Origin: Candidatus Latescibacterota bacterium
GTDB taxonomy: Bacteria > Latescibacterota > UBA2968
Length of the DNA stretch: 64,000 bases
Direction: 5' to 3'
Assembly: GCA_965205975.1 (NCBI GenBank)
Contig: OZ242195.1
Span: 2,240,001 to 2,304,000, forward strand
Each line of letters opens with the position of its first letter. Position 1 is the stretch's first letter. The position numbers were made by a program, and so were the translations under genes. The notes under the pieces were generated by a model. That model ran no database searches. It worked only from the letters and a program-made list of their open reading frames with translations, and was not told where the DNA came from. Shown piece after piece: positions 2,163 through 42,886 of the stretch.

Positions 2163-2181
2163 ACCATTTGTATTCTCAGGT

Positions 2182-2366
2182 AACGTCATGTGTGACTTCA
2201 AGATCAGTGGCCAATTAGCCCTGTCATTCTGAGCGGAGCGCAGCGGAGTCGAAGAATCTGCTGCCTCAACGGCGTTTATGGGTAACAGATGCTTCGTCAG
2301 CCTATCGGCTTCCTCAGCATGACATGGTGTAGTAGCACATTTACTTTTAAAGTCACACATCGCGTT
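2182..2366. mobile_element. MITE-like element with internal REP-like hairpin
   Basis: 22-bp terminal inverted repeats AACGTCATGTGTGACTTCAAGA / TTTTAAAGTCACACATCGCGTT (18/22). Flanking direct repeat TCTCAGGT (2174-2181 and 2367-2374). Internal stems TGTCATTCTGAG/CTCAGCATGACA and CGAAGAATCTG/CAGATGCTTCG. Confidence 0.75.
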
Positions 2367-2385
2367 TCTCAGGTAATGAAAAACC

Positions 2386-3900: not shown

Positions 3901-3936
3901 AAAAATTTTTAAAAAAATATCCAATTTTAGCGTGTA

Positions 3937-3953
3937 TTGGCACGAAATATGCA
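3937..3953 (+). promoter_or_regulatory. Sigma54 (-24/-12) promoter
   Basis: TTGGCACGAAATATGCA versus consensus YTGGCACG-N4-TTGCW with correct GG-to-GC spacing. Lies just downstream of the sigma54 activator and points into the ATPase array. Confidence 0.8.
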
Positions 3954-4042
3954 TGAACAATGGGCGTGACAGCGACGCGGACTCCCGTCACCTGAAAGAA
4001 TTTCTTGACAAAACTGATGTGTTAGCGAAAAAATCAGTATGC

Positions 4043-4141
4043 TGACCCATTCCAAATCGTAGAAAGTTGGATATTCCCAAAATTTGTCAACCTCAAGTGT
4101 TTCAGACAAGCCTGAACGTTTTTTTCACCTTGTGAGAAATT
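4043..4141 (+). repeat. Conserved cassette leader, copy 1
   Basis: 99 bp, colinear and about 90% identical with 6915-7013. Last 75 bp match 9771-9845. Ends at the ATPase ATG. Confidence 0.9.
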
Positions 4142-5860
4142 ATGGCTATTACATCTATCACCATTGAGAACTTCAAGGGCATTGGCGATGCCGTGACCAT
4201 TCCCATTCGCCCCGTCACCTTGTTGTTTGGTAAAAACAACTCGGGCAAGTCAACAGTGTTGCAGGCATTGCGTTATTTACGCAAAATTTACGAATGCGAA
4301 TATCTAAAATTTGAAGAAAAGTTAGAGGCATTACAAGATCAAGAAAGAGGCGAATCAAAATTGGAGGCCCACTACTCTCTACTCACTTTGTTGCAGGAGT
4401 TACCCAATCTTCGTACCCACCTCAGTACTCGTAATTTTCGCGAAATTCAAAAAATTATATCGCAAGAGATATTAAATCTTGATCTATCCAACTTTGACTC
4501 CCTACGCGACAAAGCTCTAAAATCCATGCAAGAAGAATTCTACTCAACATACGTTGAGCTTGCCTCAGAAGACGATTTTCTTAACGAAGATTCCGATTAT
4601 GGGGAATATGGAGAAATCAATCCAGATCACTTTACTGCGTTGGGGAATTTTTCATCCCTTGTGCATCGCCATGAGTTAGATCGGAAAATTCGAATTCGTC
4701 TTGAATTTGACATAAAACCCGAACAATTGACAAGTTCGAATAGTATTTTGCATCGTGCTATAAGGCCGGAGGAAGTGACGAATCCAAAGTCCGCGTGGAT
4801 AGAAATGATAACAGGTTGGGACGAAAAACAAGGGATTATTTATCTCGATTCATACAAGTACGCTTTGAACGGCGTAGAATGGATTTGTCTTACACCAATG
4901 GATAGACCATTACCTGATAAAGACAGATGGAATTATGAAAGGCGGTTTACAGACCTAAACATATATTCAAATCCTAATCATCCGTTCACAGTCACCCAGG
5001 CAATTGAGTTTGGTCTGAGTCAAAGTGAATTTCTGAAAGATTTCTCTTGGCTTCTCGGCACTGATAGTAGTGAGGGTAAAAAATTGGGTTTGAGCGAAAG
5101 TAATAAAAAAAAGATACGATCTTGGTTGGAGGCACATGAGAGCGAAGATATCGTAAAGAATATAGTTGAAGAATTACATCGCATTTTGGGAGAATTATGT
5201 GATATACAACATTTAGGACCTGTGCGAGATATTCCACGTCGGGATTATGCCCCATACTCATATGAAGAATTGCGATGGGCAACAGGACTACAGGCATGGG
5301 ATGTACTGGTAGGAAAACCTCAATTGGTCAAAAAGATAAACCAATATATGAAAAATTTAGCTCTTGGATATAGCTTCAAGCTATCTGAAGACCGCAAACA
5401 GAGGATGCAACTTTATGATGAGACCCATAAAATATACCTTCATCCCTTAGATATCGGTTTTGGTATCTCTCAAGTTATTCCAGTCGTGGTCGGTGCGTTA
5501 GATGACACATCTCAGATTTTCGCGGTTGAACAACCAGAGCTTCACGTTCACCCTGCCGTTCAAGTGGCTTTAGGCGATGTGTTCATTGATGGCATACAAA
5601 ACAGCAATCGCACTATCCTCATTGAAACGCATTCAGAGCACTTGCTACTGAGGATTATGAGGCGGATGCGTGAGACTTTTGAAGATAGGATTGAAGAAAA
5701 TCGTTTCCCTATAACCCCCGATGATATTGCCGTGCTATTCGTCGAATGGCATGATTCGCAAACAATCATACGAGAAATGCCTGTTAATGAACGCGGAGAA
5801 TTGGTAAAAGCCTGGCCGGGCGGTTTCTTTGAAGAAGATATAGAAGAGGTATTTGCTTAA
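4142..5860 (+). CDS. ABC/AAA-type ATPase (AAA_15/AAA_21 with DUF3696-like C-terminus), cassette 1
   Basis: ITIENFK, Walker A GKNNSGKS, signature IGFGISQ, AVEQPELHVHP, IETHSEH, C-terminal WPGGFF. Confidence 0.85.
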   Translation: MAITSITIENFKGIGDAVTIPIRPVTLLFGKNNSGKSTVLQALRYLRKIYECEYLKFEEKLEALQDQERGESKLEAHYSLLTLLQELPNLRTHLSTRNFREIQKIISQEILNLDLSNFDSLRDKALKSMQEEFYSTYVELASEDDFLNEDSDYGEYGEINPDHFTALGNFSSLVHRHELDRKIRIRLEFDIKPEQLTSSNSILHRAIRPEEVTNPKSAWIEMITGWDEKQGIIYLDSYKYALNGVEWICLTPMDRPLPDKDRWNYERRFTDLNIYSNPNHPFTVTQAIEFGLSQSEFLKDFSWLLGTDSSEGKKLGLSESNKKKIRSWLEAHESEDIVKNIVEELHRILGELCDIQHLGPVRDIPRRDYAPYSYEELRWATGLQAWDVLVGKPQLVKKINQYMKNLALGYSFKLSEDRKQRMQLYDETHKIYLHPLDIGFGISQVIPVVVGALDDTSQIFAVEQPELHVHPAVQVALGDVFIDGIQNSNRTILIETHSEHLLLRIMRRMRETFEDRIEENRFPITPDDIAVLFVEWHDSQTIIREMPVNERGELVKAWPGGFFEEDIEEVFA

Positions 5861-6813
5861 TGGCTTTATTTTCTGAGTATGCTGTAACACCTGATGTATT
5901 CAATGAGAGTTGTTATGATTCTCCGGCATTGTGTGACGTACATTTTAAACAATTGCTGGAAGTTTTTTTGAGTGAAGGGCTCGTTCGAAATCTTCGCAAT
6001 GGCGAATGGCAAGCGTTCTTTTCAACCCATGCAAGACCCTGGCACGGCCGTACAAAGCATATTTTGAAAAATTTGATAGATGCTGGTCGTTTGGTACCAA
6101 GTGACCCAGCATCAAGTCACACTCCTCAGACTGATCGTGGATGGTGCAACGAGGCGTTAGAGTCACATAAAACCATACCTTTGAATGGCATTATAGTAAG
6201 CGATGACATTCAAAGGACCTATCGCAGAAATCAGTTGGTTGAAAGTGTGAGCAGACTATCGCAATCTACCTGCGCGTGGTGGGAACCCACAAATAGTTCG
6301 CTTCGATTAGAACGTACTATCAGTCAGTATATAGACGCTCTTAAACTGATTCTCAAACACGCTAAATCCATTATGTTTATCGACCCCAATATCGATCCGG
6401 CAAAGAACAACTATGCTGATTTTGTACAATTACTTGAAGCAGCAGGTAATAGACCATCACAATCACCCCAGCCACTCGTTGAGATACACCGCAAAAGTCT
6501 TCGCGGCTCTGGGAAAAATGCTCCTGTATGGGATCAACAAGATATGGAGAATACATTTCGAACCGAATTTGGCCCAGTTCTTTCGCAGTCAAACTTAAAA
6601 GCAGAAGTCTTTATATGGGATGATTTTCATGATCGTTATCTGATCAGCAATTTAGGGGGAATACTGGTCCCCTATGGATTTGACACGTCAAGCAAGCCTG
6701 ATGACTTAACTACCTGGTCACGACTTGGACGATCAGATCGAGATGATGTACAGCGCGAATTTGCTCGCGAGAGTAATAAACACAAACTGCAGTTTAATTT
6801 TACTATACCGTGA
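5860..6813 (+). CDS. Hypothetical protein with PLD-like (MIT_C-type HDR) domain, cassette 1 partner
   Basis: TAATG overlap with the ATPase. IMFIDPN and FHDRYLISNLGG motifs are shared with the other two partners. Confidence 0.6.
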   Translation: MALFSEYAVTPDVFNESCYDSPALCDVHFKQLLEVFLSEGLVRNLRNGEWQAFFSTHARPWHGRTKHILKNLIDAGRLVPSDPASSHTPQTDRGWCNEALESHKTIPLNGIIVSDDIQRTYRRNQLVESVSRLSQSTCAWWEPTNSSLRLERTISQYIDALKLILKHAKSIMFIDPNIDPAKNNYADFVQLLEAAGNRPSQSPQPLVEIHRKSLRGSGKNAPVWDQQDMENTFRTEFGPVLSQSNLKAEVFIWDDFHDRYLISNLGGILVPYGFDTSSKPDDLTTWSRLGRSDRDDVQREFARESNKHKLQFNFTIP

Positions 6814-6914
6814 AATAGATACCTGACCGAACAATGGCTTGAAGGCGTCCGGGACCAATTGTATTTTTTATTTCACTACTCCCCGACTTTATAGGGTAAC
6901 ATTGATTGGTTTGT

Positions 6915-7013
6915 TGACCCATTCCTAATCGGAGAGAGTTGGATATTCCAAAAGTTTGTCAACCTCAAGCGTTTCGGACAAACCTGAACATTTTTTTCAG
7001 CTTGTGAGAAATC
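6915..7013 (+). repeat. Conserved cassette leader, copy 2
   Basis: Colinear with 4043-4141. Confidence 0.9.
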
Positions 7014-8720
7014 ATGGCTATTACATCTATCACCATTGAAAATTTCAAAGGCATCGGCGATAAAGCCGTGACGATTCCCCTTCGCCCCATCACCTTATTA
7101 TTTGGCAAAAACAGCGCGGGCAAGTCAACAGTGTTGCAGGCAATGCGCTATTTACGTGAAATATACGAAAGTCTGAAAATTGAAGAACCATTGCCGGAAA
7201 TGCGTGATCGCGAAAAAAACGAAGATATGGAACTTGAGCCAAGGTTGCGTAAAATTTATAAACTACATGACCGGTTGAAAGCAGCGCACTTTTTATATTT
7301 AGACGACCCATCTAACTATAGTAAAATTTCAAGTTCTGTACAAAAAATTATATCAGAAGATATATCAAATATATCGCAGACTGATCCTCTAGACTTTGAA
7401 TCTCTACGTGGCGAAGCTCTAAAATTCCTACAAACAGTAGAAGATGATATAGATGATTGGGTAGATGATTGGATAGATGATTGGGTAGATAAAAAAGGAG
7501 TAAGTGATCTAGACCACCTTACTAAGTTGGGCGATTTTCATTCTCTGGTACATTGCCAGGATCTGAGTCGGAAAATTCGAATTCGTCTTGAATTTGACAT
7601 AAAATCCGAACAATTGGAAAATTTGAACGATATTTTGAATCTTGCGATGAAATCGATGAAGGGAACAAATCCGGAGTCCGCCTGGATAGAAATGATAACA
7701 GGTTGGGACAAAAAACATCAGAAAGTCTATCTTGATTCATATACGTATGCTTTGAACGGCGAAGAGTGGATTTGTCTCACGATGAACAGATCCAGGCAAG
7801 ATGAAGCGGAATGGAATCATGAAGGGCAGTTTATAAATTTAGACATATATTCAAAGAATTTCGGCTTGAGTGAATGGATGAAAGACCTCTCTTGGCTTCT
7901 CGGCACTAATAATAGTGAGGGTAAAAAATTCGGCCTGAATGAAAGTAAGGTAAAAAATATAAGGCCTTGGTTGAAGCAGTGTGTATTCGAAGATAGATCA
8001 AAGGGTATACTAAAAAATTTGCATAATATTGTACTCGGAGCATTGAAGGACATACGATATTTAGGGCCAGTGCGAGGTGTGCCACGTCGCACTGGCGACT
8101 CATCAGATGGGTCCGAAGATCCAAAGGGATTATGGGCCTGGCGTGATCTTAAACAAGATCCTCAATTGCTGAAAAAGACAAATCACTATATAAAAAAGTT
8201 AGCCCTTGGATACAGCATCAGGCAACCTAAAGATGACGATCATGAGGTTCAACTTTATGATGAAACTCATAAGATATACCTCCATCCCTTAGATGTTGGC
8301 TTTGGCATCTCTCAGGTCATTCCAGTTATGGTCGGTGTGTTAGATGACACGTCTCATATTTTTGCAGTTGAACAGCCAGAGCTTCACGTTCACCCTGCCC
8401 TTCAAGTCGCTTTGGGCGACTTATTCATTGACGGCATAAAAAACAGCAATCGCACCCTGCTTATTGAAACGCATTCTGAGCACTTGATGTTGCGATTGCT
8501 GCGGCGCGTGCGTGAAACAACCCGTCGTAGCAGACGCCGCCAGACCACCGACTTAGAACAGACAGCTCACGAATTGACACCTAATGACCTTTCTGTGGTC
8601 TATGTTCGGCCAACGCCAGCAGGCGTTAAATTCACGCCACTCACTGTAACGAATGACGGTGATTTTGATGCACCATGGCCAGAAGGCTTTTTCGAAGAAC
8701 GTGATTCGGAGTTGTTTTAA
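7014..8720 (+). CDS. ABC/AAA-type ATPase (DUF3696-like), cassette 2
   Basis: GKNSAGKS, VGFGISQ, AVEQPELHVHP, IETHSEH, WPEGFF. Paralog of 4142-5860. Confidence 0.85.
   Translation: MAITSITIENFKGIGDKAVTIPLRPITLLFGKNSAGKSTVLQAMRYLREIYESLKIEEPLPEMRDREKNEDMELEPRLRKIYKLHDRLKAAHFLYLDDPSNYSKISSSVQKIISEDISNISQTDPLDFESLRGEALKFLQTVEDDIDDWVDDWIDDWVDKKGVSDLDHLTKLGDFHSLVHCQDLSRKIRIRLEFDIKSEQLENLNDILNLAMKSMKGTNPESAWIEMITGWDKKHQKVYLDSYTYALNGEEWICLTMNRSRQDEAEWNHEGQFINLDIYSKNFGLSEWMKDLSWLLGTNNSEGKKFGLNESKVKNIRPWLKQCVFEDRSKGILKNLHNIVLGALKDIRYLGPVRGVPRRTGDSSDGSEDPKGLWAWRDLKQDPQLLKKTNHYIKKLALGYSIRQPKDDDHEVQLYDETHKIYLHPLDVGFGISQVIPVMVGVLDDTSHIFAVEQPELHVHPALQVALGDLFIDGIKNSNRTLLIETHSEHLMLRLLRRVRETTRRSRRRQTTDLEQTAHELTPNDLSVVYVRPTPAGVKFTPLTVTNDGDFDAPWPEGFFEERDSELF
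7443..7490 (+). repeat. 12-bp in-frame tandem repeat (DDIDDWVDDWIDDWVD)
   Basis: GATGATTGGRTA x3 preceded by GATGATATA. Confidence 0.85.
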
Positions 8721-8722
8721 TT

Positions 8723-9706
8723 ATGCTGAATATTTTTGCTATTGATCCCAAAATATGTCAAAATTTGGAGTGGTTTCGATATTGCACGGAGCACTGTCAG
8801 CCGTCACAAGGACGTGCAATTGCAGATTTACCGTATGACCAATGGTATGAAAATGCGTTTGCGATCATTCAAGACCTTCAACTTCCTCCTATGGAAGAAA
8901 AAAGCCTGAAAAGGCGTCTGGATCTGGTGCGAGCACAACTGGTAAATCGTCCAAGAACTGATTGGACAGATTGGTATTATGATGATTTTTCAAAATTTCC
9001 CTGGATTGCCGAAGTAGAGAAGGAGCATCAGCGAGCGCGTTTTTCTGCCGTTGTCAGCCCTGATTACGAGGGGGCTGATGATACGGAACTCAAGTATCAT
9101 CCTGATGAACTCAATAGAACCGTAGAGGCCTAGAATACTCCCAGTGGCGTTTCAATTACGCGCAGCCCTGGAGACTTCGTAAATGCCATTCTGCCAATGC
9201 TTCGGATTGCTCGGAATATTCACTTTTTGGATCGATATTTTAACGTGGACAGTAACAGTTCATTTACCCAAAATTACACGCAGATGATCCAGGATTTAGC
9301 CTCATATTGTGATTCCTTTCCATCACTGACAATCCATTGCTGCCCAGACGAAAATGATACGCCTGATTCACGTTACTTTGAAAATGAACTGAATAAGCAC
9401 TACGCGTCCTTAATACCAACAGGAAAATCTGTAAAGGTTCTTTTGTGGCAAACAAATCAAGATGCCCAAATAGAAAGAGGTGCTCATCCCTTTCACAATC
9501 GCTATGTGCTATCTAATCATTGCGGTGTCATTGCGGGATATGGTACGGATAGTGCAAAAGCACCGACTGATGCACCAGATGTCCTTCAGATTGTTGACCA
9601 CAAAATATATTTAGAAATGTGGAATCAAATTCGGGATGAAACATTTCCTATGATCCACATTGAGGAGGAAAACAAGTTTGTGATTAACGGTACTAAAAGC
9701 GCGTGA
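8723..9706 (+). pseudogene. PLD-like partner of cassette 2, interrupted by in-frame TAG at 9131-9133
   Basis: ORFs 8723-9133 and 9197-9706 are in the same frame with an open linker (NTPSGVSITR...). The stop aligns with the Trp of paralogs (AWDDPPSS, AWWEPTNSS), consistent with TGG>TAG. IHFLDRYF and FHNRYVL motifs present. Confidence 0.8.
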
Positions 9707-9739
9707 TTAACAGCGTATAATACGATACCGAAAAATTGA

Positions 9740-9765
9740 GACCTGTCATAAACGACGGGCTGCAA
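9740..9765 (+). repeat. Truncated copy of the array terminator 5' arm
   Basis: GACCTGTCATAAACGACGGGCTGCAA is 22/26 identical to 12039-12064. Confidence 0.75.
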
Positions 9766-9770
9766 TTGTT

Positions 9771-9845
9771 TTAGATATTCCAAAAATTTGTCAACCCCAA
9801 GCGTTTTAGACAAACCTGAACGCTTTTTTCACCTTGTGAGAAATC
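9771..9845 (+). repeat. Conserved cassette leader, copy 3 (5'-truncated)
   Basis: Colinear with 4067-4141. Confidence 0.9.
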
Positions 9846-11072
9846 ATGGCTATTACATCTATAACTATTGAAAATTTCAAGTGCATCGGCGATGCCGTGA
9901 CCGTTCCCATACGCCCCATCACCTTGTTATTTGGCAAAAACAGTTCGGGCAAGTCAACTGTGTTGCAGGCACTCCTCTATCTACGCAAAATATGCAAAGC
10001 AGAACCAGAACCCTGGGAATTAGGTGGCAGAGGCGAGGGCTATGGCAGTGGTAGTGGCGAGCTTTTTGGCGGAGACTCTGATAGAGTTAGTAGCGATAGC
10101 AATAGAGAAATCGATCCAAACCACTTTAGAGGATCGGACGATTTTCGTTCTCTGGTGCATCGCCAGGAATTAGATCGGAAAATTCGAATTCGTCTTGAGT
10201 TTGGCATAAAATCAGAGGATGTGACGAAGTCGAAATCCGCATGGATAGAAATAATAACAGGATGTGACGGAGAACTACACATCAAACCTGATAAAACTGC
10301 GTTGCAGCAGTGTAGGCGCGAATTGCGAGACCTATTAGAGTTAGGACCAGTGCGAGATGTGCCAAAGCAGGCTCTTGGATCAACGTCTGATTTTGCTAAA
10401 GGTACCTGGACAACAGGGTTAGAGGCCTGGTATATACTTGCACAAGATCCCCAATTGCGAGAAAAGACAAACCACTATATGAAAAAGTTAGCACTTGGAT
10501 ACAGTTTCAGGTGTTCTGAAAACGGTGAACACGAAATTCAACTTTATGATGAAACCCATAAGATAGACGTTCATCCTTTACATGTTGGTTTTGGCATTTC
10601 GCAAGTCATTCCAGTCGTGGTAGGTGCATTAGAAAGTTCCCGTCGGCTTTTCGCAGTTGAACAGCCAGAGCTTCACGTTCACCCTGCCCTTCAAGTCGCT
10701 TTGGGCGACTTATTCATTGATGGAATAAAAAATAGCAATCGCACCATGCTCATTGAAACGCATTCTGAACACTTGTTGTTGCGATTGCTGCGACGTGTAC
10801 GTGAGACTAATGTTCGTAACTCGAAAAAATACGAATGGCGACAAAGTTCAATGTCCCCTCTACACCAAGAGATGTCAGAGGCCGCCATTCGTGACGCAGA
10901 AAATCAAGACTCAAAAGATCACCAATTGACGCCAGACGATCTGTCTGTGGTCTATGTTCGACCAACGCCAGCAGGAGTTAAATTCACTCCACTCGCTGTA
11001 ACGAATGACGGCGATTTTAATGCACCATGGCCAGAAGGCTTCTTCGACGAGCGAGTGGAGGAACTTTTATGA
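9846..11072 (+). CDS. ABC/AAA-type ATPase (DUF3696-like), cassette 3, shorter central region
   Basis: GKNSSGKS, VGFGISQ, AVEQPELHVHP, IETHSEH, WPEGFF. Confidence 0.85.
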   Translation: MAITSITIENFKCIGDAVTVPIRPITLLFGKNSSGKSTVLQALLYLRKICKAEPEPWELGGRGEGYGSGSGELFGGDSDRVSSDSNREIDPNHFRGSDDFRSLVHRQELDRKIRIRLEFGIKSEDVTKSKSAWIEIITGCDGELHIKPDKTALQQCRRELRDLLELGPVRDVPKQALGSTSDFAKGTWTTGLEAWYILAQDPQLREKTNHYMKKLALGYSFRCSENGEHEIQLYDETHKIDVHPLHVGFGISQVIPVVVGALESSRRLFAVEQPELHVHPALQVALGDLFIDGIKNSNRTMLIETHSEHLLLRLLRRVRETNVRNSKKYEWRQSSMSPLHQEMSEAAIRDAENQDSKDHQLTPDDLSVVYVRPTPAGVKFTPLAVTNDGDFNAPWPEGFFDERVEELL

Positions 11073-12001
11073 CAAAAGAACAGCGCGATAATAAAAAGCT
11101 GATTCATGATTATGCGTTAGAACCCGAACTGATCGCAAATTGCGATCAATTCTTATTTCGATACCTTACCCAATACAAAAAATTTGGCTGGGACACAGGC
11201 TGCATCGTAGTTCAATACCCCAATCACTGGCGAGAACTGGTTGAGAGACTATTCAATGATAACAAACGGTCCGAACTATTGCTGACGCGTTTGCTTAGAA
11301 CAAAGGCCGTACGCCATGACTCCACGTGGAACGATTTATTCCCTTGGATTGAAAACGCTGCAAACGAAAAAAGTCCCCATCCGTTTCATGTGATCTTGGC
11401 CCACAATAATCCTAACCCACAGAAATGGTCCAACATCGTATGCGCGGAAGATATTTCTCTCGGAGATGATAGAGCTTGGGACGATCCTCCTTCTTCAGCC
11501 ACAGTAAATCGGACTGCTACTTCAATGGCAGCTTGCATTGAGCCTCTGCTAAGATATGCAACGCAAATTCATTTCATTGATCCACATTTTTGCCCGTTGC
11601 AAGATAGATTCAAGAATCCTTTAAGTAAATTCCTAAAAATCATTTGTCACGATAGCCATGAGGTCTCACTCGAATATCACACCTTAGCTGACAACACATT
11701 GTGCTGGAAAGATTTTCAACAGAAATGCGAAGATGAGCTTCCTCATCTAATTCCTAAAGGTTTTACGCTCACTGTCCGCCGTTGGAAAAACAGGGTCGGA
11801 GGTGAGCGTTTTCATAATCGCTATATCCTCACTAACATCGGTGGTGTAGCTTTCGGTAATAGTATCGCCGAAGCTCCGAAAGGAGAGGATAATATCTCCC
11901 GCTTGAGTGAAATTGATTCTCAAAGATGGCTCAATAAGTACTCTGGTGACTCACCTGCATTTGATCTGGAGGGAGAAGTAAATATAAAAAGCACACTATG
12001 A
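11069..12001 (+). CDS. PLD-like (HNR) hypothetical protein, cassette 3 partner
   Basis: ATGA overlap with the ATPase stop. DYALEPE, IHFIDPHF and FHNRYILTNIGG motifs. Confidence 0.6.
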   Translation: MTKEQRDNKKLIHDYALEPELIANCDQFLFRYLTQYKKFGWDTGCIVVQYPNHWRELVERLFNDNKRSELLLTRLLRTKAVRHDSTWNDLFPWIENAANEKSPHPFHVILAHNNPNPQKWSNIVCAEDISLGDDRAWDDPPSSATVNRTATSMAACIEPLLRYATQIHFIDPHFCPLQDRFKNPLSKFLKIICHDSHEVSLEYHTLADNTLCWKDFQQKCEDELPHLIPKGFTLTVRRWKNRVGGERFHNRYILTNIGGVAFGNSIAEAPKGEDNISRLSEIDSQRWLNKYSGDSPAFDLEGEVNIKSTL

Positions 12002-19883: not shown

Positions 19884-20063
19884 GTAAGAGGAGTGAAATG
19901 TGAAGTTGTCATTGTAGCCTGATGTTAAGCCGCAATCCATTAACAGGAATACAACGAGCCAAACGGCTTGTATTTTATTAGAGATATTCGTATTATGGAC
20001 GGTCATAGATTTTAGAATCTGTAAGACGGCTTCTCAGGATTATTTCTGATCGAATGAGGAAAA

Positions 20064-23000
20064 ATGAACACAGGTGACAATTTCCACGGTGAACGCCCCG
20101 GACCGATAGCCTACATGGCTGGTAACAGTGTAGCCGCCAATCTACTGATGTGGGCCATTATCGCCGCCGGGCTGGTGTCGCTGACCGGACTCGACCGGGA
20201 AGCGTGGCCCACCACTCCCTTCTACCATATTGAAGTGTCGATGGCCTATCCCGGCGCCACACCGGAGGAGATCGAGGAGTCGATCGTCGTCAAGATCGAA
20301 GATCAGGTCAGTGGATTGGATGACGTGAAGGCGGTCAAGTCCGTATCGGCCCCGGGTATGGCATCCGTGCGGGTTCAAATGGATTTCGATACGGACATGG
20401 CTCGGGCGTTGAACGATATCGAGTCTGCCGTCAATCGCATACAGTCTTTCCCGATCAGTGCCGAACGTCCCAGTTTCAGGGAGATGACTAACCGCATGAG
20501 CATGATGCGGCTCATTGTTTATGGCGATGTGCCCGAGCGTGCGCTGAAGGAATTGGCGTATCAGATCAAGGATGAACTCACGGCTCTTCCCTCCGTCTCC
20601 CAGGTCGAGGTCAGCGGTATTCGGAAATACGAGATCTCTATCGAGGTACCGCTTCATCGGCTAAGAGCACTTGGACTCACCCTCACCGACATAGCCAACA
20701 CGATTCGTCGCAGTTCACTGGACTTATCTGCCGGCAGTATCAATACCCGGGAATCCCAGGTGCGGGTCCGGACTCTCGGTCAGAACTACGACCAAAAGGA
20801 TTTCGAAGAGATCGTCCTTCTCAGTGGCAGCGACGGCACGGTTTTGCGCGTTGGCGATATCGCCGAGGTTCGCGACGGTTTTCAGGAAACCGACCTGATT
20901 GTCCGGCATCAGAACCATCCCGCTGTATTCGTCGAGGTCTATCGGGCCGATGGTGAGCAAGTGATGGATGTCGCCACGACCGTTCGAGAGCACCTGGCGA
21001 ACGAGGTGATCCCATCTCTACCGGACGGTGTGGGCGTCACCATGTGGAATGACGAATCCCAGGTCTATGAGGAACGCGCCGATCTTCTCCTCAAGAACGG
21101 GATCCTGGGCCTGTTGCTGGTGCTGATCGCACTCAGCCTGTTTCTCGAAATCCGGCTCGCGCTTTGGGTCGCCGTGGGCCTCGCCGTTTCGGGAATCGGT
21201 GCCCTTGCCATCATGATGGCATTCGACGTGGCGATCAACACCATCAGCCTGTTCTCCTTTGTCCTCGCCATAGGAATCATCGTCGACGATGCCATCGTCG
21301 TAGCCGAGTACATCCACTACGAACGCAAGCGGGGAACACCCGGGGTCACGGCCGCGATCCGAGGCGTACGGCGGATCAAGGTGCCGTTGACGTTCGCAGT
21401 TCTGACGTCGGTGGTGGCCTTCGTCCCGTTGCTGTTCATTCCCGGCGGCGTCGGTGAGGTGTGGCGGGCCCTGCCGATCATCATGATCGCCATGCTGCTG
21501 GTTTCCCTGGTCGAATCGCTGTTCGTGCTGCCCAACCACCTGTCTCACCTGCACGGCCCGGAGTGGGTGCCGGCCAATGCCTTCGACCGGTTCTTCGCGC
21601 GGCTCCAGGGGCGCGTTGACGCGCTGCTGAACAGGTTCGTCCAAGGCCCGCTGGATCGGGCCCTGCAGTTCGCCACCGACCAGCCCGTGGTGACGATGTC
21701 GGGGGCTGTGGGAATGCTCGTGCTGAGCATCTCCCTGTTGCCCGCGGGGATCGTTCCTACCACGCTGGCCGCTGACGTGGAGGGGGATATCGCGACGGTC
21801 GTCCTGGAGATGCCCGATGGGGCGACCGCTCCGAGGACGTACGAAGTGGCGCAGGAACTGGAGGCCGCAGGCCACCGGGTCATCGAACGACTCTCGCGCG
21901 GCCGGCCCGGGGATGCGCCACCGCTGCTGACTGGCGTAACGGTGACTGTCGGACAGGGCTCGAGACTCGGGGGCGGACTCAATCCGGAGCCGACCCTCAA
22001 TCCGCAAGCCAACATCGCCACCATTGAGTTCAAACTCCTGGGCGCACAACAGAGAGAAATCTCCACCGGAGAGGTCGTGCAGGCATGGCGGGAGGAGGTG
22101 GGTGTGCTACCCCACGTACGCGGCATCACCTTCAGCGGCGAGGTCTTTGACTTGGGCAACCCGGTGGAGGCCGTGTTGTCGCATCCGGACCCGGAGCGCC
22201 TTGCCCGGATTGCAGACTCCGTGGTCGATGGTCTCCGTGGAGTGGGAGGCGTCTTCGATATACGCTCGGATCACACCCCGGGCATCCCGGAAGTTCAACT
22301 GGAGCTGCAGCCAGAAGGTCGAACTCTCGGTCTCACACTCCACGACCTGGCCGGGCAGGCACGGGCGGCGTTCTTCGGCGCAGAGGCCGTTCGGGTGCAG
22401 CGCGACCGGGAAGAGGTCCGGGTCTATGTGCGCCTGCCCTCCGATGAACGAAAATCCATCACCGATGTCGAAGGATACCTGCTCCGTACTCCGAGTGGTG
22501 CCGAGGTCCCGGTTATGAGTGTGGCCTCCCTGAACCCGGGGGTGTCGCCGCCGGCCATTCGACGGAAGGACGGCCAGCGCGTCGTCACGGTCACTGCGGA
22601 CGTGGATGCTTCGGTGATTTCAGGCGACGAAGCCAACGACATCCTGGCCAATTCGATCCTCGCGGATCTGACCGCCCTGCACCCGGACCTGACATACAGC
22701 TTCGGAGGGGAACAACAACAGCAGCTCGAATCCCTGGATGCGCTGTATCGCGGATTTGCGATTGCCATGCTCCTGATCTTCGCGCTGCTCGCCATCCCCC
22801 TCCGATCCTATACAAAGCCGTTCATCATCATGGCCGTCATCCCCTTCGGGTTCATCGGAGTGATCCTGGGTCACTGGGTCCTGGGAGTAGCCCTGAGTGC
22901 CGTATCTTTCATGGGTATCTTCGGCCTGAGTGGGGTGGTCGTGAACGATTCCCTGGTCATGATCGATTTCATCGATCAGGAACTCGAGGAAGGCATGCCG

Positions 23001-23246
23001 GCGCAAACTGCAATCATAGAGGGCGCAAAAGGGCGATTTCGCCCAATTATGCTCACTTCCGTGACTACGTTCCTCGGCTTCACTCCCCTTATTCTGGAAC
23101 GTGCCATCCAAGCCCAGTTCCTGATCCCCTTTGCCGCGTCTCTCGGTTTCGGCATTCTCATTACCACGGCCATACTTATGATGATCGTTCCCGCGCTATA
23201 CGCGATCCATTTGCATCTGATTTCTCTGCGCAGTAATACGAGTTAG
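20064..23246 (+). CDS. RND efflux transporter permease (AcrB/AcrD/AcrF family)
   Basis: AANLLM, YPGATPEEIE, GIIVDDAIVVAE, GVVVNDSLVM, RFRPIMLTS. 1060 aa with GC-rich codon usage. Confidence 0.93.
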   Translation: MNTGDNFHGERPGPIAYMAGNSVAANLLMWAIIAAGLVSLTGLDREAWPTTPFYHIEVSMAYPGATPEEIEESIVVKIEDQVSGLDDVKAVKSVSAPGMASVRVQMDFDTDMARALNDIESAVNRIQSFPISAERPSFREMTNRMSMMRLIVYGDVPERALKELAYQIKDELTALPSVSQVEVSGIRKYEISIEVPLHRLRALGLTLTDIANTIRRSSLDLSAGSINTRESQVRVRTLGQNYDQKDFEEIVLLSGSDGTVLRVGDIAEVRDGFQETDLIVRHQNHPAVFVEVYRADGEQVMDVATTVREHLANEVIPSLPDGVGVTMWNDESQVYEERADLLLKNGILGLLLVLIALSLFLEIRLALWVAVGLAVSGIGALAIMMAFDVAINTISLFSFVLAIGIIVDDAIVVAEYIHYERKRGTPGVTAAIRGVRRIKVPLTFAVLTSVVAFVPLLFIPGGVGEVWRALPIIMIAMLLVSLVESLFVLPNHLSHLHGPEWVPANAFDRFFARLQGRVDALLNRFVQGPLDRALQFATDQPVVTMSGAVGMLVLSISLLPAGIVPTTLAADVEGDIATVVLEMPDGATAPRTYEVAQELEAAGHRVIERLSRGRPGDAPPLLTGVTVTVGQGSRLGGGLNPEPTLNPQANIATIEFKLLGAQQREISTGEVVQAWREEVGVLPHVRGITFSGEVFDLGNPVEAVLSHPDPERLARIADSVVDGLRGVGGVFDIRSDHTPGIPEVQLELQPEGRTLGLTLHDLAGQARAAFFGAEAVRVQRDREEVRVYVRLPSDERKSITDVEGYLLRTPSGAEVPVMSVASLNPGVSPPAIRRKDGQRVVTVTADVDASVISGDEANDILANSILADLTALHPDLTYSFGGEQQQQLESLDALYRGFAIAMLLIFALLAIPLRSYTKPFIIMAVIPFGFIGVILGHWVLGVALSAVSFMGIFGLSGVVVNDSLVMIDFIDQELEEGMPAQTAIIEGAKGRFRPIMLTSVTTFLGFTPLILERAIQAQFLIPFAASLGFGILITTAILMMIVPALYAIHLHLISLRSNTS

Positions 23247-23328
23247 CAATCTCTCCGACCTGCGGTCGGTCTCAGCTACGTAGCAGACCAGTTCCACTGT
23301 TTCAAATGAGAATAAGACTTGCCTTCCC

Positions 23329-23357
23329 TTGACCAAATATTTGTATTTATTTATATT
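23329..23357 (+). promoter_or_regulatory. Putative sigma70 promoter for P450-SMT operon
   Basis: TTGACC-17nt-TATATT in an AT-rich gap. AAGGAGG precedes ATG 23421. Confidence 0.5.
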
Positions 23358-23420
23358 TGCCATAAGTACAGTAAGGGCAAGTGCCTTATGGTATTGAAGT
23401 AATGCAAGGAGGCCGAGGCT

Positions 23421-25448
23421 ATGGCTAATACTACCGAGGGTTTCCAATCGCTAAGTCTCACCGAAGAGCTCATCCTGATGCTCCTCAACGAGGAGACTGG
23501 TTACTTTCACCAGGTACCCGGCTGGCATTTGCACTGCGCCGTGGTCGGTGCCGTGCTCGCGGAGCTTTCACTCAGATCGCGCATCGACACGGACCTGGAA
23601 TCCCTGTTCCTCGTGGACGAGTCGGAAACGGGGAGACCTGCCCTGGACCCCATTCTGAAAGAAATCGCAGCCGAATCTGTTCAACGGAACGCCCAGTACT
23701 GGATCGAACGGCTCGCTCCCCGTGCGGAATCGATCATTGATTCGGTTCTGGACCGCCTGGTTGACCTGAAGATCCTGGAATATCACGACGGTGAATTCTG
23801 GACACTGGCTCCTACCGTCTGGCGTGGAGAACTGTCCAGCAAGTCGGAAGAGAGCACTGCAGGCCAGTTCATAAAAACGCGGATCAGCAGGGTCATCTTC
23901 ACCGACGAGATTCCCGATCCGAGAGATGTCATCATTATCTGCCTCGTCAATACCTGCGACGTCTTTCGTTTCATATTCCAGCTCGACGACGAGGCGGAGG
24001 AGCGCATCGAGTTCATCTGCAAGATGGATCTGATCGGCCGCTCCCTGGCCTCTGCGGTCTCTCAGAACCTCGCCCGCCGAGCCCTTCGCCGTCCTGCCCT
24101 TGCCAGGAAAATTCCGACGGTTTCGCTGCCCAAGCTGCTGCTGAACCCGCATAGTCGAGACGGCAACCTGAACGCGCTCTTCGGGAACCTTGCGGAGGAG
24201 TACGGTCCGGTGTTCCAGATCCGCCCACCCTTCTCGAAGCCCATGATCTTCCTGGCCGGACTCGAGACAAACCGCTGGGTGCACAAGCGCGGGCGCATGT
24301 ACCTGAGAGCCAGGGACTACTTCAGCGACTTCGAGAAGGTCTATGGCGCGTCCGGCGTCCTGCCCGCCCTGGACGGAGCCGATCACTTCCGGCTTCGCCA
24401 GTCTCTGTCGCCCGCCTATTCTGCCGTGAGGCTGGGAGGGCAGCTAGGCCAGCTCTACAATCAGGGGCGCAAGTACATGGCGAGCTTGACGGTTGGGGAC
24501 TCATACCGCGCCACGTCCATGTGTCGGGAGATGGTGAACGCCCAGCTCTCCCCACTGTTCATCGGCGTCGATACCCAGGACCTCATGGACGACCTGATGG
24601 CGTACAAGGAACGGGCCCTCAGCGTGCACGTCGCCAAGCTTCTGCCCAGATTCACGCTGAACACCCCGGGCATGAGACGCCGGGCGAAAGCCCTGGACAC
24701 ACTGATGCAGCGGGTCCAGGACATCCATACCTCCGCCCAACGGGCGGACAGCCCGCGGGATCTGGTGGACGATTACCTCAGCCTGCACGCGAGCGACCCG
24801 CAGTTTCTCCCAGAGTCCAACCTGCTGTTCTCCTTTTCCGCGGCCTTGATTGCCAGCGTGTACCTCGGCGATACGTTCAGCCTCGTAGTCTACGCCATGG
24901 CGTCACAGCCCGACCTCTACGCCAGAATCCAGGCCGAAGCAGATGCCCTGTTCGCCAAGGGAGACCCCGAGAGAGAGGATTTCACCCCCGCCAACATTGA
25001 CGTTACCCACCGCTTCCTCATGGAGTGCATGCGCATGTACCCGATCGTCTCCATGTCCATTCGGAACGTGATGAATACGTGCGTGGTCGAGGACTACGAG
25101 CTGCCCATGGGGGAACGTATCCACATCGCCATGACCGCCACGCATTACATGAGCGAGGTCTTTCCCGATCCCTACAAGTTCGACATCGACCGCTACCTGC
25201 CATCGCGCCATGAACACCGAAGCCCCGGGTACGCCCCGTACGGGCTGGGCACGCACAAGTGTCTCGGCACCCGGTGGATGGAACTGCACCTGGCGGCCAA
25301 CTTGTTGATGCTGGCGCACTACTTCACGATTGAGGTGTCGCCGGTGAAGTACAATCACAAGCTCCGTTTCAGTCCGTTCCCGTCGCTGAAACCGAGCAAG
25401 AAGCTGAAGTTCCGCATCTCCCAGCAGAGACGGGAGCTGTTCACCTGA
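23421..25448 (+). CDS. GPP34 (GOLPH3/Vps74-like) domain fused to cytochrome P450
   Basis: N-terminal ~220 aa LTEELILMLLNEETG...GAVLAELSLRSRID resembles the GPP34 family. C-terminal P450 has ECMR (ExxR), FPDPYKFDIDRY and the heme motif YGLGTHKCLG. Confidence 0.8.
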   Translation: MANTTEGFQSLSLTEELILMLLNEETGYFHQVPGWHLHCAVVGAVLAELSLRSRIDTDLESLFLVDESETGRPALDPILKEIAAESVQRNAQYWIERLAPRAESIIDSVLDRLVDLKILEYHDGEFWTLAPTVWRGELSSKSEESTAGQFIKTRISRVIFTDEIPDPRDVIIICLVNTCDVFRFIFQLDDEAEERIEFICKMDLIGRSLASAVSQNLARRALRRPALARKIPTVSLPKLLLNPHSRDGNLNALFGNLAEEYGPVFQIRPPFSKPMIFLAGLETNRWVHKRGRMYLRARDYFSDFEKVYGASGVLPALDGADHFRLRQSLSPAYSAVRLGGQLGQLYNQGRKYMASLTVGDSYRATSMCREMVNAQLSPLFIGVDTQDLMDDLMAYKERALSVHVAKLLPRFTLNTPGMRRRAKALDTLMQRVQDIHTSAQRADSPRDLVDDYLSLHASDPQFLPESNLLFSFSAALIASVYLGDTFSLVVYAMASQPDLYARIQAEADALFAKGDPEREDFTPANIDVTHRFLMECMRMYPIVSMSIRNVMNTCVVEDYELPMGERIHIAMTATHYMSEVFPDPYKFDIDRYLPSRHEHRSPGYAPYGLGTHKCLGTRWMELHLAANLLMLAHYFTIEVSPVKYNHKLRFSPFPSLKPSKKLKFRISQQRRELFT

Positions 25449-25487
25449 CGACTTGGCTCCTTGTGGAGCCAGGGGAAACACCACAAA

Positions 25488-26522
25488 ATGCGGCTGTGCA
25501 AACTATCGAGAGAGCTGAGAGATGCGTACCGGGGATCGGGCGTCGCACGTCGAGTGCAGCACTTCGACGGCTGGCTTGACCGGGCGGCGCTGGAACCCGG
25601 TGGCCCGGGCGGGTACGATCACACGGAAACAGTGAAAGACTATTACGACCTTTGCAGCGGGTTCATGGTGTGGGGCTGGGGCCAGTCCCTGCACTTCGCG
25701 CCCCTCACGCCTCATGAGAGTCTGGAGGAGTCTCAGGTCCGGCATCAGCGGCTGATGATTTCCAAGTTGGAACTGCAACAGGGTATGACAGTGATCGACG
25801 TTGGTTGTGGAGTCGGCGCCCCCATGCGCCGCGTCGTCCGTGAGGCTGGTGTCAGGGTTGTAGGAATCAACATCAATGAGATCCAGTTGGAAGAGGCGAA
25901 GAGGTTGAACGCCGAGGCAGGGCTTGATCACATGGTCGATTTCGAGACGTGCAGCTTCATGGACATGAGCATCATTGAGGACGACACCTTCGACCGGGGT
26001 TATGCCATAGAGTCAACGTGCCATGCACCGGACAAGCAACGCGCCTTCGAAGAGGTATTCCGCGTGCTGAAACCCGGTGCCCTGTTCTGGGGGCAGGAAA
26101 TGTGTCTGACGGGCAAGTTCAATCCGAAGGACGACCGGCATCGGGCCATCAAGGAGGATCTCATGCGCGGCATTGCGCTGAGGGACATCGCCACCTTCGA
26201 GGAAGTGAATCACGCGCTCGGAGCCGCGGGATTCCAAGTCATGGAAGGGATGGACCGGGCGATCCAGGAAGGACCCTCCACACCTTGGTATCAACCCATG
26301 GAGAGTCGCCATGGGACGGTTGGAAACGCCTTGCGCAGGCTTCCTTGGGGCCGTAAAGCGGTCATCACAGGATCGAAGCTGGCTGAAGTACTGCGGCTCT
26401 TTCCGAAGGGCTCCGCGGAAGTCATCCGACTCCTGGATCGGACCGCGGAGGCTTATATCGCGGGCGGCAAGGCGGGTATCTTTACGCCGCTGTACTGTTT
26501 CTTGGCTCGCAAGCCTCTTTAG
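25488..26522 (+). CDS. Sterol C-24 methyltransferase (ERG6/SMT-like)
   Basis: YYDL..F..WGWGQSLHFAP, IDVGCGVGAP, YAIESTCHAP, VLKPG, PWY, C-terminal GIFTPLY..LARKP. Alternative start at 25461. Confidence 0.85.
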   Translation: MRLCKLSRELRDAYRGSGVARRVQHFDGWLDRAALEPGGPGGYDHTETVKDYYDLCSGFMVWGWGQSLHFAPLTPHESLEESQVRHQRLMISKLELQQGMTVIDVGCGVGAPMRRVVREAGVRVVGININEIQLEEAKRLNAEAGLDHMVDFETCSFMDMSIIEDDTFDRGYAIESTCHAPDKQRAFEEVFRVLKPGALFWGQEMCLTGKFNPKDDRHRAIKEDLMRGIALRDIATFEEVNHALGAAGFQVMEGMDRAIQEGPSTPWYQPMESRHGTVGNALRRLPWGRKAVITGSKLAEVLRLFPKGSAEVIRLLDRTAEAYIAGGKAGIFTPLYCFLARKPL

Positions 26523-26540
26523 GCGCGCCTAGGCGCGCCT
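26521..26540. repeat. Tandem duplicated 10-bp palindrome between convergent genes
   Basis: AGGCGCGCCT AGGCGCGCCT. Confidence 0.8.
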
Positions 26541-26555
26541 TCGCGCGGGCCCCTC

Positions 26556-27653
26556 TTAGTCGGAGACCGAGTCCCCACTTCCCTTCGCAATCGTCGGATC
26601 GGGATAGAACTGCTGGCAATACCGGCGGTACTTCCCTATGGGGCCGTCGGCCCTACACAGCCTGGGGGGAGACCGATACCGCTTCCGTTCCCAGATCACC
26701 ACATCCTGCAGGACATCCCGTTTCTGTTGTGACATTAAAATACGATTCATTAACCTGTGCCGCAGCTTCATCGGCAGAAACCCCAGACCTGAGATAAATC
26801 GCCGGGGCTTGCGGATTTCCCTCAGTTGGCTGACCAGTACAAGATCGATGAGGGTGCCATCAATGGGCGTTGCGAGTACCCACAACCTCGCATTCATATC
26901 AATAGTTTTCTCGTGGATCTCGACGAAGGAGTAGCCCAGTCCATAGACATGGGTGATAGCCGAGGGTTCGTACACGAGGTCCTTTACACCCAGGATCCTG
27001 CGAACGCGTTTGAAGTCGAAGCAACTCTTCAGGTAGGCGCCCTCCACCTTTACCGAACCGACCGGATTCACATTGTCGTAACCATGCACATAGCGCAGGT
27101 GTCCCAGATCTACTGAGTTCTCGGTTGTTTCCTGGGGATGTCCACGGAACCGGAATATGTTGAATCTCAGTTCACACCACTCTTGTCCAGTGGTTGGCTC
27201 AGCTGGTAGATCCCACTGCGACGACCGTCCGCCGCTCCCAAACCAGGCGAAGACCATGCCGAGGATCTCTCGCGTCTCATATACTTTCAGCCTCGCGGCT
27301 CTCGGTGCCGGGGCGTTCGGAGTCGCAACGCATTGACCGGTCGTATCGTACTCAAATCCGTGAAACGGACAGACGAGCCTACCATTGCATATCTTCCCAC
27401 CGACCTCCGGTCCCATGTGCGAGCCCAGGTGCGGACATACCGCGTCGGCCACACAGACACGGCCTGCATCGTCGCACCATGCGACGATTTCCTCCCCCAG
27501 CCACGTCTTCTCGATCAGTTTCTCTCGCAAAATGGAATCGCGGCTTGCGACGAAATACCACCCTTCAGGGAACGGCGGTAGCGCATCAGCGCCATTCATG
27601 ACCGGTCGATTAGTATCACTGGTTCGTAAATCCGCAGATTCTGTCAAAGACAT
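26556..27653 (-). CDS. Rieske [2Fe-2S] non-heme iron oxygenase (Neverland/DAF-36/KshA-like steroid oxygenase)
   Basis: FPEGWY, CPHLG...CPFHG, ENSVDLGHLRYVH, C-terminal DVVIWERKRY..PPRLC..DGPI..YRRYCQQFY. Start 27653 follows GAGGT; the ORF extends to 27704. Confidence 0.8.
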   Translation of the reverse strand: MSLTESADLRTSDTNRPVMNGADALPPFPEGWYFVASRDSILREKLIEKTWLGEEIVAWCDDAGRVCVADAVCPHLGSHMGPEVGGKICNGRLVCPFHGFEYDTTGQCVATPNAPAPRAARLKVYETREILGMVFAWFGSGGRSSQWDLPAEPTTGQEWCELRFNIFRFRGHPQETTENSVDLGHLRYVHGYDNVNPVGSVKVEGAYLKSCFDFKRVRRILGVKDLVYEPSAITHVYGLGYSFVEIHEKTIDMNARLWVLATPIDGTLIDLVLVSQLREIRKPRRFISGLGFLPMKLRHRLMNRILMSQQKRDVLQDVVIWERKRYRSPPRLCRADGPIGKYRRYCQQFYPDPTIAKGSGDSVSD

Positions 27654-27698
27654 AAAGGGTCTTACCTCATATTTAAAACATACAAAGCCATATCGCAT

Positions 27699-27742
27699 TA
27701 TCATCTATAAGATATCTACGGCAGATGAGCAAGGTGAAAGAT
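27699..27742. repeat. Right direct repeat of sterol island (putative promoter for Rieske gene)
   Basis: Matches 19840-19883. Minus strand reads TTGCTC-17-TATAGA. Abuts the lptD-like stop codon. Confidence 0.8.
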
Positions 27743-41665: not shown

Positions 41666-42886
41666 TCAATCACCTCTGACCGCAGTCCGCACCACCATGC
41701 CTTCAGTTGCGACCTGAATCCCGCCTATGACGACCGCCTGGCCGGCTTCCAGAGTGCCGGTTACGAACACTTTATCATCGGAACGCTGAAGGACGCGCAC
41801 CGGGACGATGGTCAATCGTTTGTCATCGCGCACTGCCCAAATCTCGTTGCCTGGCCTGAGTGCTGACCGTCGCAGGATGAAGTACCGGTCTGGGATGATT
41901 CCCTCAATTCGTACTTTCACAAACTTACCCACAAGAAGGGGCGGACCTGGACCAGCATTTGCATTATCGCCATCTGCTCCAGCCCAGGTGCCGCTTGCAA
42001 AGGGGTCCGGAACGCGTACGATGACGTTGATGGTGCGCGTCTGTTCGTCCAAGGATGCCTCCGCCCGATCTACATAGCCCTCCCAGGCATAGCTCCCTTT
42101 GCCGTATTCAGCTATGACGTGAGCCTTGACCCGCCGGTCTCCGTCGCCCGCTTCCAACTCCCATAGGCCGGGGATGAGAACCGCGTTGGCGTCGGACAGG
42201 GGAACCACTACTTCGACGGCGTTGGCCGCGTAAAGTCGCCCTGCGCTCTGGCCAGCTACCACGAACTGCCCCACATCTATCGACTCGATCCGCACGACTC
42301 CGCTGAAGGGCGCACGTATCTCTGTGCGGGACAAAGCCAATTCAGCGTCAGCGAGCATGGCACTATCTCTACCTAAAGCGGCTTGGGCAGCCTCGAGCTG
42401 AGGCTGCCGCAATACCAGAGGACTGGCCTCCGTCAGAGACGTGCGATCCGCCTGACGGCGTTTATATTGTGCGTATTCAGCGCGTGCGATCCGGGCCTCT
42501 TCCTCCTCCTGAAGAAGTACTACCTGCTGTGCGGCCACGTTGGCACGTGCCTGCTGCACTCTGTTGCGATAGTCGGCGTCCTCAATGCGGAAGAGAACCT
42601 GCCCTTCGCGAACTCGTCCGCCACTCTGAAAGGCCGGATCCACCCAAACAACCTTACCATTGATTTCGGCAGCGACATCTATCTCTGCGACAGGTCGAAC
42701 CGTCCCGGCTCCGTACACGGGAATTGCACTGGTACCGACCACTGCAGGCGTTGCGGTTACGAAGGGAATCTGGGTGGGAAGAGGTCGGAGTTCCGGATTG
42801 GGCTTCAACCAGACCATAAGGCTGGCAAAAAACAAGGATATGAGAAGGACGGCACCGGCCGTGAGTAAGCTTCTTCCTCGATTCAT
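41666..42886 (-). CDS. RND efflux periplasmic adaptor (membrane fusion protein)
   Basis: N-terminal TM, GTVRP...EINGKVV, GGRVREGQVLFRIE, coiled coil, LSRTEIRAPFSGVV. GC-rich like the sterol island. Confidence 0.9.
   Translation of the reverse strand: MNRGRSLLTAGAVLLISLFFASLMVWLKPNPELRPLPTQIPFVTATPAVVGTSAIPVYGAGTVRPVAEIDVAAEINGKVVWVDPAFQSGGRVREGQVLFRIEDADYRNRVQQARANVAAQQVVLLQEEEEARIARAEYAQYKRRQADRTSLTEASPLVLRQPQLEAAQAALGRDSAMLADAELALSRTEIRAPFSGVVRIESIDVGQFVVAGQSAGRLYAANAVEVVVPLSDANAVLIPGLWELEAGDGDRRVKAHVIAEYGKGSYAWEGYVDRAEASLDEQTRTINVIVRVPDPFASGTWAGADGDNANAGPGPPLLVGKFVKVRIEGIIPDRYFILRRSALRPGNEIWAVRDDKRLTIVPVRVLQRSDDKVFVTGTLEAGQAVVIGGIQVATEGMVVRTAVRGD

Follow-up and report, generated by a model that had tools for sequence, protein, structure and literature searches.

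Introduction

To activate O2, a P450 usually relies on the acid-alcohol pair of its I-helix for protons (PMC12937128). In a 64,000-nucleotide stretch of DNA from a Candidatus Latescibacterota bacterium (contig OZ242195.1, positions 2,240,001 to 2,304,000; called the window here), a preliminary description had pointed to a P450 with a non-canonical I-helix that is fused to a GPP34-like domain. How could such an enzyme activate O2, and on what would it act? Our tentative answer is that the P450 oxidises an imported, probably pre-oxygenated sterol by way of a non-standard proton relay.

The GPP34-P450 fusion of sponge symbionts is already in print (PMC11706023). Ferreira et al. 2025 call this architecture GPP34_L (656 of their 663 long forms) and describe it as exclusive to sponge symbionts, Latescibacterota being one of the phyla rich in it; the role that they propose, for GPP34 proteins as a whole, is PI4P-mediated phagosome evasion. 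The protein in the window resembles GPP34_L in its two-domain architecture and length, and probably in its type of host. However, the I-helix and the gene cassette discussed below are not treated in the accessible text of that paper, whose main text holds the words "sterol" and "methyltransferase" 0 times, and the PI4P pocket that it invokes is absent in the present branch. In a literature search that lay mostly outside subscription journals, we found no other paper on GPP34-P450 proteins; the branch with the rebuilt I-helix and its cassette, which we did not find in print, would be what is new here.

Results and Discussion

The fusion gene (23421..25448, + strand) is a single reading frame of 675 residues, with an ATG start and a purine-rich ribosome site just 5' of it; the ORF, Pfam, the structural model and the tree place it in the rebuilt-I-helix branch of the GPP34_L type. 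The preliminary description of a GPP34-like N-terminus joined to a complete P450 is borne out by Pfam, which finds GPP34 at residues 13–214 (E 4e-29, 102.5 bits against a cut-off of 29.1 bits) and p450 C-terminal to it (E 1.9e-34). The ExxR motif (E535/R538), the meander and the heme-binding motif with Cys614 (25236..25268, + strand, from P450 alignments) are all intact, and E535, R591 and C614 are invariant in a 124-sequence alignment.

An AlphaFold model from a 124-sequence alignment has a mean pLDDT of 91 and a pTM of 0.86, with the I-helix (residues 465–494) unbroken. Foldseek searches with it returned P450s exclusively, at a TM score of 0.8 and identities of at most 20%; no family-level relative was found in the PDB by sequence or fold, no NCBIfam model matched above its cut-off, and an atlas search gave unnamed P450 clusters and nothing else. 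Membership of a P450 family takes about 40% identity, and the fusion P450 stays below this level for CYP51, with 23% to the CYP51-like protein of locus L153 (see below) and 19–20% to solved CYP51 structures.

Both domains are present in all of the 120 best homologues listed (identity 74–98%), so the fusion is no assembly accident, and both are under purifying selection in 5/5 relatives (dN/dS 0.16–0.32 for GPP34 and 0.14–0.24 for the P450). The nearest loci (93–98%) belong to Latescibacterota MAGs, and sponge-metagenome-labelled runs contain 0.35–0.40 of the sequence words. A promoter and terminator scan gave counts like those of shuffles (3 vs 3.5 and 7 vs 6.1), with one candidate at 23329–23357. 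Contigs from RNA runs cover parts of the surrounding island in 4/4 runs, and one spans the end of the fusion gene and the start of the following methyltransferase gene; flanking genes are also covered and DNA carry-over is possible, so that we do not take this as evidence of expression.

The rebuilt I-helix

The unusual I-helix noted in the preliminary description is confirmed by the alignments. The segment 475–487 (24843..24881, + strand) is one residue shorter than in relatives, has Tyr481 at the position of the threonine, and contains no acid. In a profile alignment the gap falls one or two columns further on, but in either register both the acid and the threonine are missing. Residues 475–484 are near-invariant (198–200 of 201 per position, in close and partly redundant sequences with one row masked). 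Residue 485, which was considered as a shifted catalytic threonine, is T in 145, A in 44 and M in 11 of the 201 close relatives, and was rejected for this role because of the variation.

Most GPP34-P450 fusions and free relatives, taken as representatives at 50% identity, keep AGxDT. Among 293 aligned P450 domains, 111 are without the deletion and retain the threonine in 106 cases (DT 91, ET 8, HT 7), while the 182 with the one-residue deletion have tyrosine in that column in 178 cases and the F-helix arginine, Arg398, in 181. In a midpoint-rooted FastTree tree of 145 rows, the 44 rebuilt-helix rows form a single clade with support 1.0, which sits inside the AGxDT fusions, the deeper nodes being weak. 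Where Tyr481 and Arg398 lie with respect to the heme is deduced from alignment, the available structures having at most 20% identity. Among the relatives there is also a P450 fused to cyclic-nucleotide-binding domains (P0265, 711 aa), whose I-helix is likewise non-canonical.

The sterol C-22 desaturases CYP61/CYP710 had been offered as an analogy. They are alike in that they are P450s with an altered I-helix, and a sterol substrate is probable here too. However, their SRS4 motif, given as F(L/M)F(A/S)QDA(S/T)(S/T)S (PMC9368853), is absent from the window's P450, and as far as motifs can be compared they replace the threonine alone, keeping the acid and having no deletion, whereas here both acid and threonine are gone, with a deletion and a tyrosine. 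The analogy is therefore loose.

The island and its cassette

The fusion gene is part of an island (19900..27742) between dtd and lptD, delimited by GC3 and same-genus comparison. It holds an RND transporter gene of the AcrB type (20064..23246, + strand; Pfam and neighbour comparison), followed by the fusion, a methyltransferase gene with a Sterol_MT_C domain (25461..26522, + strand, likely start ATG 25488) and, on the opposite strand, a Rieske/KshA_C gene (26556..27704, − strand). The GC3 of these four genes is 0.62–0.79, compared to 0.50–0.55 for the flanking ones. As dtd and lptD lie within 100 bp of each other in 5/7 same-genus genomes without the cassette, the island is an insertion of ~7.8 kb; an eighth same-genus genome has the cassette at another site, and two genomes share the site of the window. 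Elsewhere in the window, at 2386–12001, there is a stretch of low GC (0.40–0.44) in which an activator, which we take to be of the sigma-54 type, precedes three ATPase genes that resemble one another and are each accompanied by a small partner; the set is presumably a repeated defence module.

A cassette gene lies within 9 kb of 161/169 P450 matches with the rebuilt helix, as against 0/21 matches without the deletion. The loci behind these counts are related and partly redundant, matches with fewer than 300 aligned residues having been dropped, and the 21 controls, one of them an unfused P450, were chosen by hand within a single phylum. The cassette loci, from genomes and metagenomes, carry the labels Latescibacterota, Gemmatimonadota, Chloroflexota, Binatia, Acidimicrobiia, Rhodothermales, Vicinamibacteria and Gammaproteobacteria.

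The composition of the cassette was followed in long loci (at least 16 kb), binned by identity to the window's P450. At 75% identity or more, the sterol methyltransferase (SMT) is present in 28/29 loci, the Rieske gene in 26/29 and a transporter in 27/29. At 60–75% the corresponding numbers are 39/59, 51/59 and 44/59, and in the deep loci, below 60%, they are 2/15, 13/15 and 11/15. The Rieske gene is thus the steadiest enzyme partner over the whole branch. Judged by this gene content, the core of the cassette is the Rieske enzyme and the transporter, with the SMT, a flavoenzyme and a 3Beta_HSD-like enzyme as exchangeable parts.

The transporter is either an RND protein with a membrane-fusion protein and an outer-membrane protein, or an MMPL protein with a sterol-sensing match. 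In the window, a membrane-fusion protein with 60% identity to that of the relatives' cassettes is encoded alone at 41666..42886 (− strand), 14 kb from the island and its RND gene, and the best outer-membrane partner in the genome has 31% identity to that of the cassette; the island's pump may be split or borrowing parts. At L083 346–2350 and L084 518–5731, an SMT-less cassette has as its neighbours a CmlS-type halogenase, short-chain reductases and an AMP-binding enzyme, and in L083 the pump is flanked by two fusion copies. Another version has an HSD-like gene instead of the SMT (L090 7567–10684, at the same dtd site, and L092 7506–9530). The fusions of these two loci are 78–79% identical to the window's in GPP34 but 53% in the P450, which suggests that the two domains have been recombined.

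The methyltransferase and Rieske partners

The divergent SMT homologue has a SAM motif and lacks a glycine at position 249. It has 22 of the 25 residues that a preprint gives as common to all functional SMTs (10.64898/2025.12.19.695621), the deviations being T78→S, F89→L and G132→A, as read by eye on an alignment scaffolded by canonical-type SMTs rather than by the yeast sequence. The sterol-binding Region I is altered throughout this family, with M for Y81 and L for F89 in 93/93 members. Such a protein likely acts on a different substrate or position, and it is possible that it is inactive. Judging from the gene order, the SMT gene marked "2 of 2" in PMC10070321 is probably of this divergent type.

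The Rieske gene encodes an oxygenase subunit of the KshA/cholesterol 7-desaturase group, according to Pfam, PDB and atlas searches. Its best PDB matches are KshA (E 1e-20), and the atlas clusters are named cholesterol 7-desaturase at 0.97. It has the Rieske and KshA_C domains of KshA and of the Neverland/DAF-36-type steroid enzymes, but, unlike in KshA systems, no KshB reductase gene is found near it. In the cyclase-free locus L113 (5846–7997), a canonical-type SMT gene stands directly behind another Rieske/KshA_C gene, 27% identical to the window's; these two may constitute a second small sterol-modifying pair.

The closeness of the fusion and SMT genes, which are 12–39 bp apart, brings up the scenario in which the P450 is a side-chain desaturase: it would introduce a double bond, at C-24 or C-25 for instance, into a host sterol with a saturated side chain, and the divergent SMT would then methylate this alkene, possibly at C-26. 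SMTs are stated to need an isolated double bond (10.64898/2025.12.19.695621). The near-constant presence of the SMT in the nearest subgroup fits this scenario, and a SAM motif, most of the functional residues and a Region I of its own are consistent with an SMT that takes another substrate. However, the motif is unlike that of CYP710, and the deep loci keep the Rieske gene and the transporter but seldom the SMT. The rebuilt helix is thus older than the SMT partnership, and supplying the alkene to the SMT, as had been proposed, is not supported as the reason for the change in the I-helix. Furthermore, a de novo sterol pathway gives a C-24 alkene, and in locus L153 the fusion is present although such a pathway already supplies it. 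We therefore regard the desaturase scenario as unlikely.

Sterol or another lipid

The sterol-related setting that had been noted for the fusion gene stands, since Sterol_MT_C and KshA_C Rieske genes adjoin it. Over all cassette loci, the sterol-type partners comprise Sterol_MT_C, KshA_C, the MMPL protein with its sterol-sensing match, the 3Beta_HSD-like enzyme and ERG4/ERG24, the last in eight Chloroflexota loci. In seven of these (L046, L047, L055, L061, L068, L071 and L077, at 1200–4600), two tandem ERG4/ERG24 genes with about 71% mutual identity lie upstream of the cassette, and in L057 there is a single one.

Locus L153 has a fusion gene (70% identity) and a divergent SMT gene (78%) beside a Rieske remnant, together with a canonical SMT, a squalene epoxidase-cyclase fusion, a CYP51-like P450 and ERG24, that is, a de novo sterol cluster. 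Its genes stand in the same order as those of a cluster with two SMTs that Brown et al. 2023 list in their Supplementary Data 1 (PMC10070321). The L126 contig, where a canonical SMT gene precedes the cassette by 2.3 kb, is among those whose SMT was assayed in the same work. What counts against our own reading, besides the missing electron donors (see below), is that a de novo cluster, or any cyclase, is found in 1/161 cassette loci and a canonical SMT in 4/161, and that the flavoenzyme is not sterol-like.

It is important to point out that the window's genome, which is 98% complete, has no cyclase and no P450 besides the fusion, and that searches in it for the epoxidase-cyclase and ERG24 of L153 gave no match. 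Any sterol must thus come from outside. The sterol clusters and SMTs described for sponge symbionts (PMC10070321, PMC9531527, 10.64898/2025.12.19.695621) share the mobility and probably the habitat; in contrast to those clusters, the island in the window is cyclase-free and has an SMT that deviates from the functional consensus, and in their accessible text these papers do not mention GPP34-P450 proteins. Outside the island, a flavin-dependent reductase is encoded at 897–2162 of the window. It resembles, we assume, the geranylgeranyl reductase family, a homologue from which has reportedly been implicated in myxobacterial cholesterol synthesis (10.1101/2024.11.01.621555).

Could the substrate be a lipid other than a sterol, such as a fatty acid or a hopanoid-type triterpenoid, the sterol-type labels reflecting ancestry? 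The matches of the flavoenzyme partner are LkcE and a fatty-acid isomerase (2b9w, which we take to be the polyunsaturated-fatty-acid isomerase), and not a sterol enzyme; the top fold match of the fusion, CYP184A1, has an oleic-acid complex, and the branch-invariant Arg398 could anchor a carboxylate. In addition, 12/32 cassette genomes, all labelled Chloroflexota, have a full-length cyclase that scores far above the sterol cyclase of L153 and, by this score, is probably of the hopene type. However, the other 20/32 have no full-length cyclase, and three independent sterol-type partners, the eight loci with ERG4/ERG24 and the L153 cluster all speak for sterols, which makes a non-sterol substrate improbable.

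Electron supply

As the preliminary description stated, no reductase or ferredoxin gene stands next to the fusion; the adjacent Rieske protein is the oxygenase subunit and not an electron donor. Profile searches of the window's genome found no typical P450 ferredoxin, ferredoxin reductase or flavodoxin, with 0 matches to PF14759, PF13459 and PF00258. There are seven Fer2 matches, all in frames of 175–648 residues that look like subunits of other enzymes, which we presume them to be, and the one PF00970 match falls in the 488-residue frame among them. A 94-residue Fer4 frame (PF00037; G000:C1:96701) is the sole candidate donor in the genome.

The missing donors, together with the absence of any reductase family among the recurrent cassette neighbours, keep alive the alternative that the enzyme is driven by peroxide, as a reductase-free peroxygenase or hydroperoxide isomerase. 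The loss of both residues of the proton relay (for their role, see PMC12937128) would agree with this. Nevertheless, the Rieske partner requires electrons anyway, so that some donor must exist. The acid-base residue typical of the I-helix in known peroxygenases is also missing, and we consider the peroxide-driven alternative quite improbable.

A heme protein without catalysis is a further option, in which the sterol is bound and passed on to the RND/MMPL transporter while Tyr481 blocks or ligates the distal site. A transporter is present in 82/103 long rebuilt-helix loci, and tandem or paired divergent fusion copies occur in L083, L132, L184 and L186, both of which could suit a binding protein. 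The heme motif, the ExxR motif and the meander are, however, conserved as in active relatives, and this option is very unlikely.

The GPP34 domain

The N-terminal domain (residues 13–214, 23457..24062, + strand) has the GPP34/GOLPH3 fold, as had been supposed, its profile matching 3KN1 at E 8.8e-6 and Vps74 at E 7e-5. With GOLPH3 and Vps74 (PDB 3KN1, 9QPQ, 2ZII) it shares homology and a hydrophobic hairpin, here at residues 126–129. The membrane targeting through PI4P that had been suggested from this homology is not supported. The PI4P pocket of GOLPH3 is formed by W81, R90, R171 and R174 (PMC2806290). Opposite the three arginines stand V42, E103 and I106, while the conserved Trp35 is two residues off W81; the alignment is weak (28 bits) and its register could shift, but the domain has a net charge of −18. 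Over 174 branch members, the tallied residues at the three arginine positions are not basic, and the mean net charge is −17. The domain differs from GOLPH3/Vps74 in being strongly acidic and fused to an enzyme and, by this alignment, in having other residues for the pocket arginines.

The hairpin, on the other hand, is kept, with F126 in 167 and W127 in 155 of the 174 members. Attachment to a membrane or to a protein through it is plausible, whereas PI4P reading is not. With respect to a possible metal site, C39 (173/174) and C179 (169/174) are well kept, C200 and H30 not. A relative with a doubled GPP34 domain (P0193, 872 aa) was also seen. The genome of the window has a stand-alone GPP34 gene of 217 residues with no P450 near it (L081 1486–2139; G000:C1:5436693), which keeps an arginine at the R174-equivalent position.

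A secreted effector that binds PI4P and blocks phagosome maturation in sponge cells, after the proposal in PMC11706023, is extremely unlikely for this branch, given its non-basic pocket and negative charge, even though the homology to GOLPH3/Vps74 (E about 1e-5) and the described restriction of GPP34_L to sponge symbionts are in its favor; the R174-equivalent arginine is kept in 36/53 AGxDT-type fusions, and the proposal may fit those better.

Proposed mechanism

Returning to the oxidation of an imported sterol, the fusion P450 would act as the heme-thiolate oxidase within a lipid-tailoring cassette that spreads horizontally and consists of the Rieske oxygenase, the RND or MMPL transporter and the fusion itself, with an SMT, flavoenzyme or HSD-like enzyme as extras. 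Since the host appears unable to make sterols, the substrate would be a sterol supplied by the sponge or by fellow symbionts. The Rieske enzyme would most likely act first, and the P450 would oxidise its product further, by hydroxylation or C−C cleavage. P450s that lack the threonine can draw protons via a substrate hydroxyl or another residue, as in CYP107A1 and CYP7A1/8B1. By analogy, a substrate hydroxyl and two residues specific to the branch, Tyr481 and Arg398, might here take over from the acid-alcohol pair as the proton source for O2 activation, which would suit a branch whose most constant enzyme partner is a steroid-type Rieske oxygenase. The product of the P450 would be diversified by the SMT or another extra, the transporter would carry the lipid in or out, and the GPP34 domain, rather than reading PI4P, would use its hairpin to attach the enzyme to a membrane or a protein.

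One can speculate further that the cassette allows cyclase-less symbionts of many phyla to make the hallmark "sponge" sterols out of those of the host. The P450 would then be a new kind of Tyr/Arg-assisted side-chain desaturase or C−C cleaver and the SMT a C-26 methyltransferase (giving aplysterol and the biomarker 26-methylstigmastane), and the host would receive the product back through the pump. We think this extended version rather improbable.

Conclusion

Whether the sponge or the symbiont makes the unusual side-chain-alkylated sterols that are used as the oldest animal biomarkers is stated to be open (PMC12541326), and the four-gene, cyclase-free mobile cassette offers directly testable enzymes for this question. 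The branch is also a natural case of a P450 that is without both residues of the proton relay and yet strongly conserved, with the AGxDT sisters as built-in controls. For the GPP34_L family, it argues that at least these members are metabolic proteins and not phagosome effectors.
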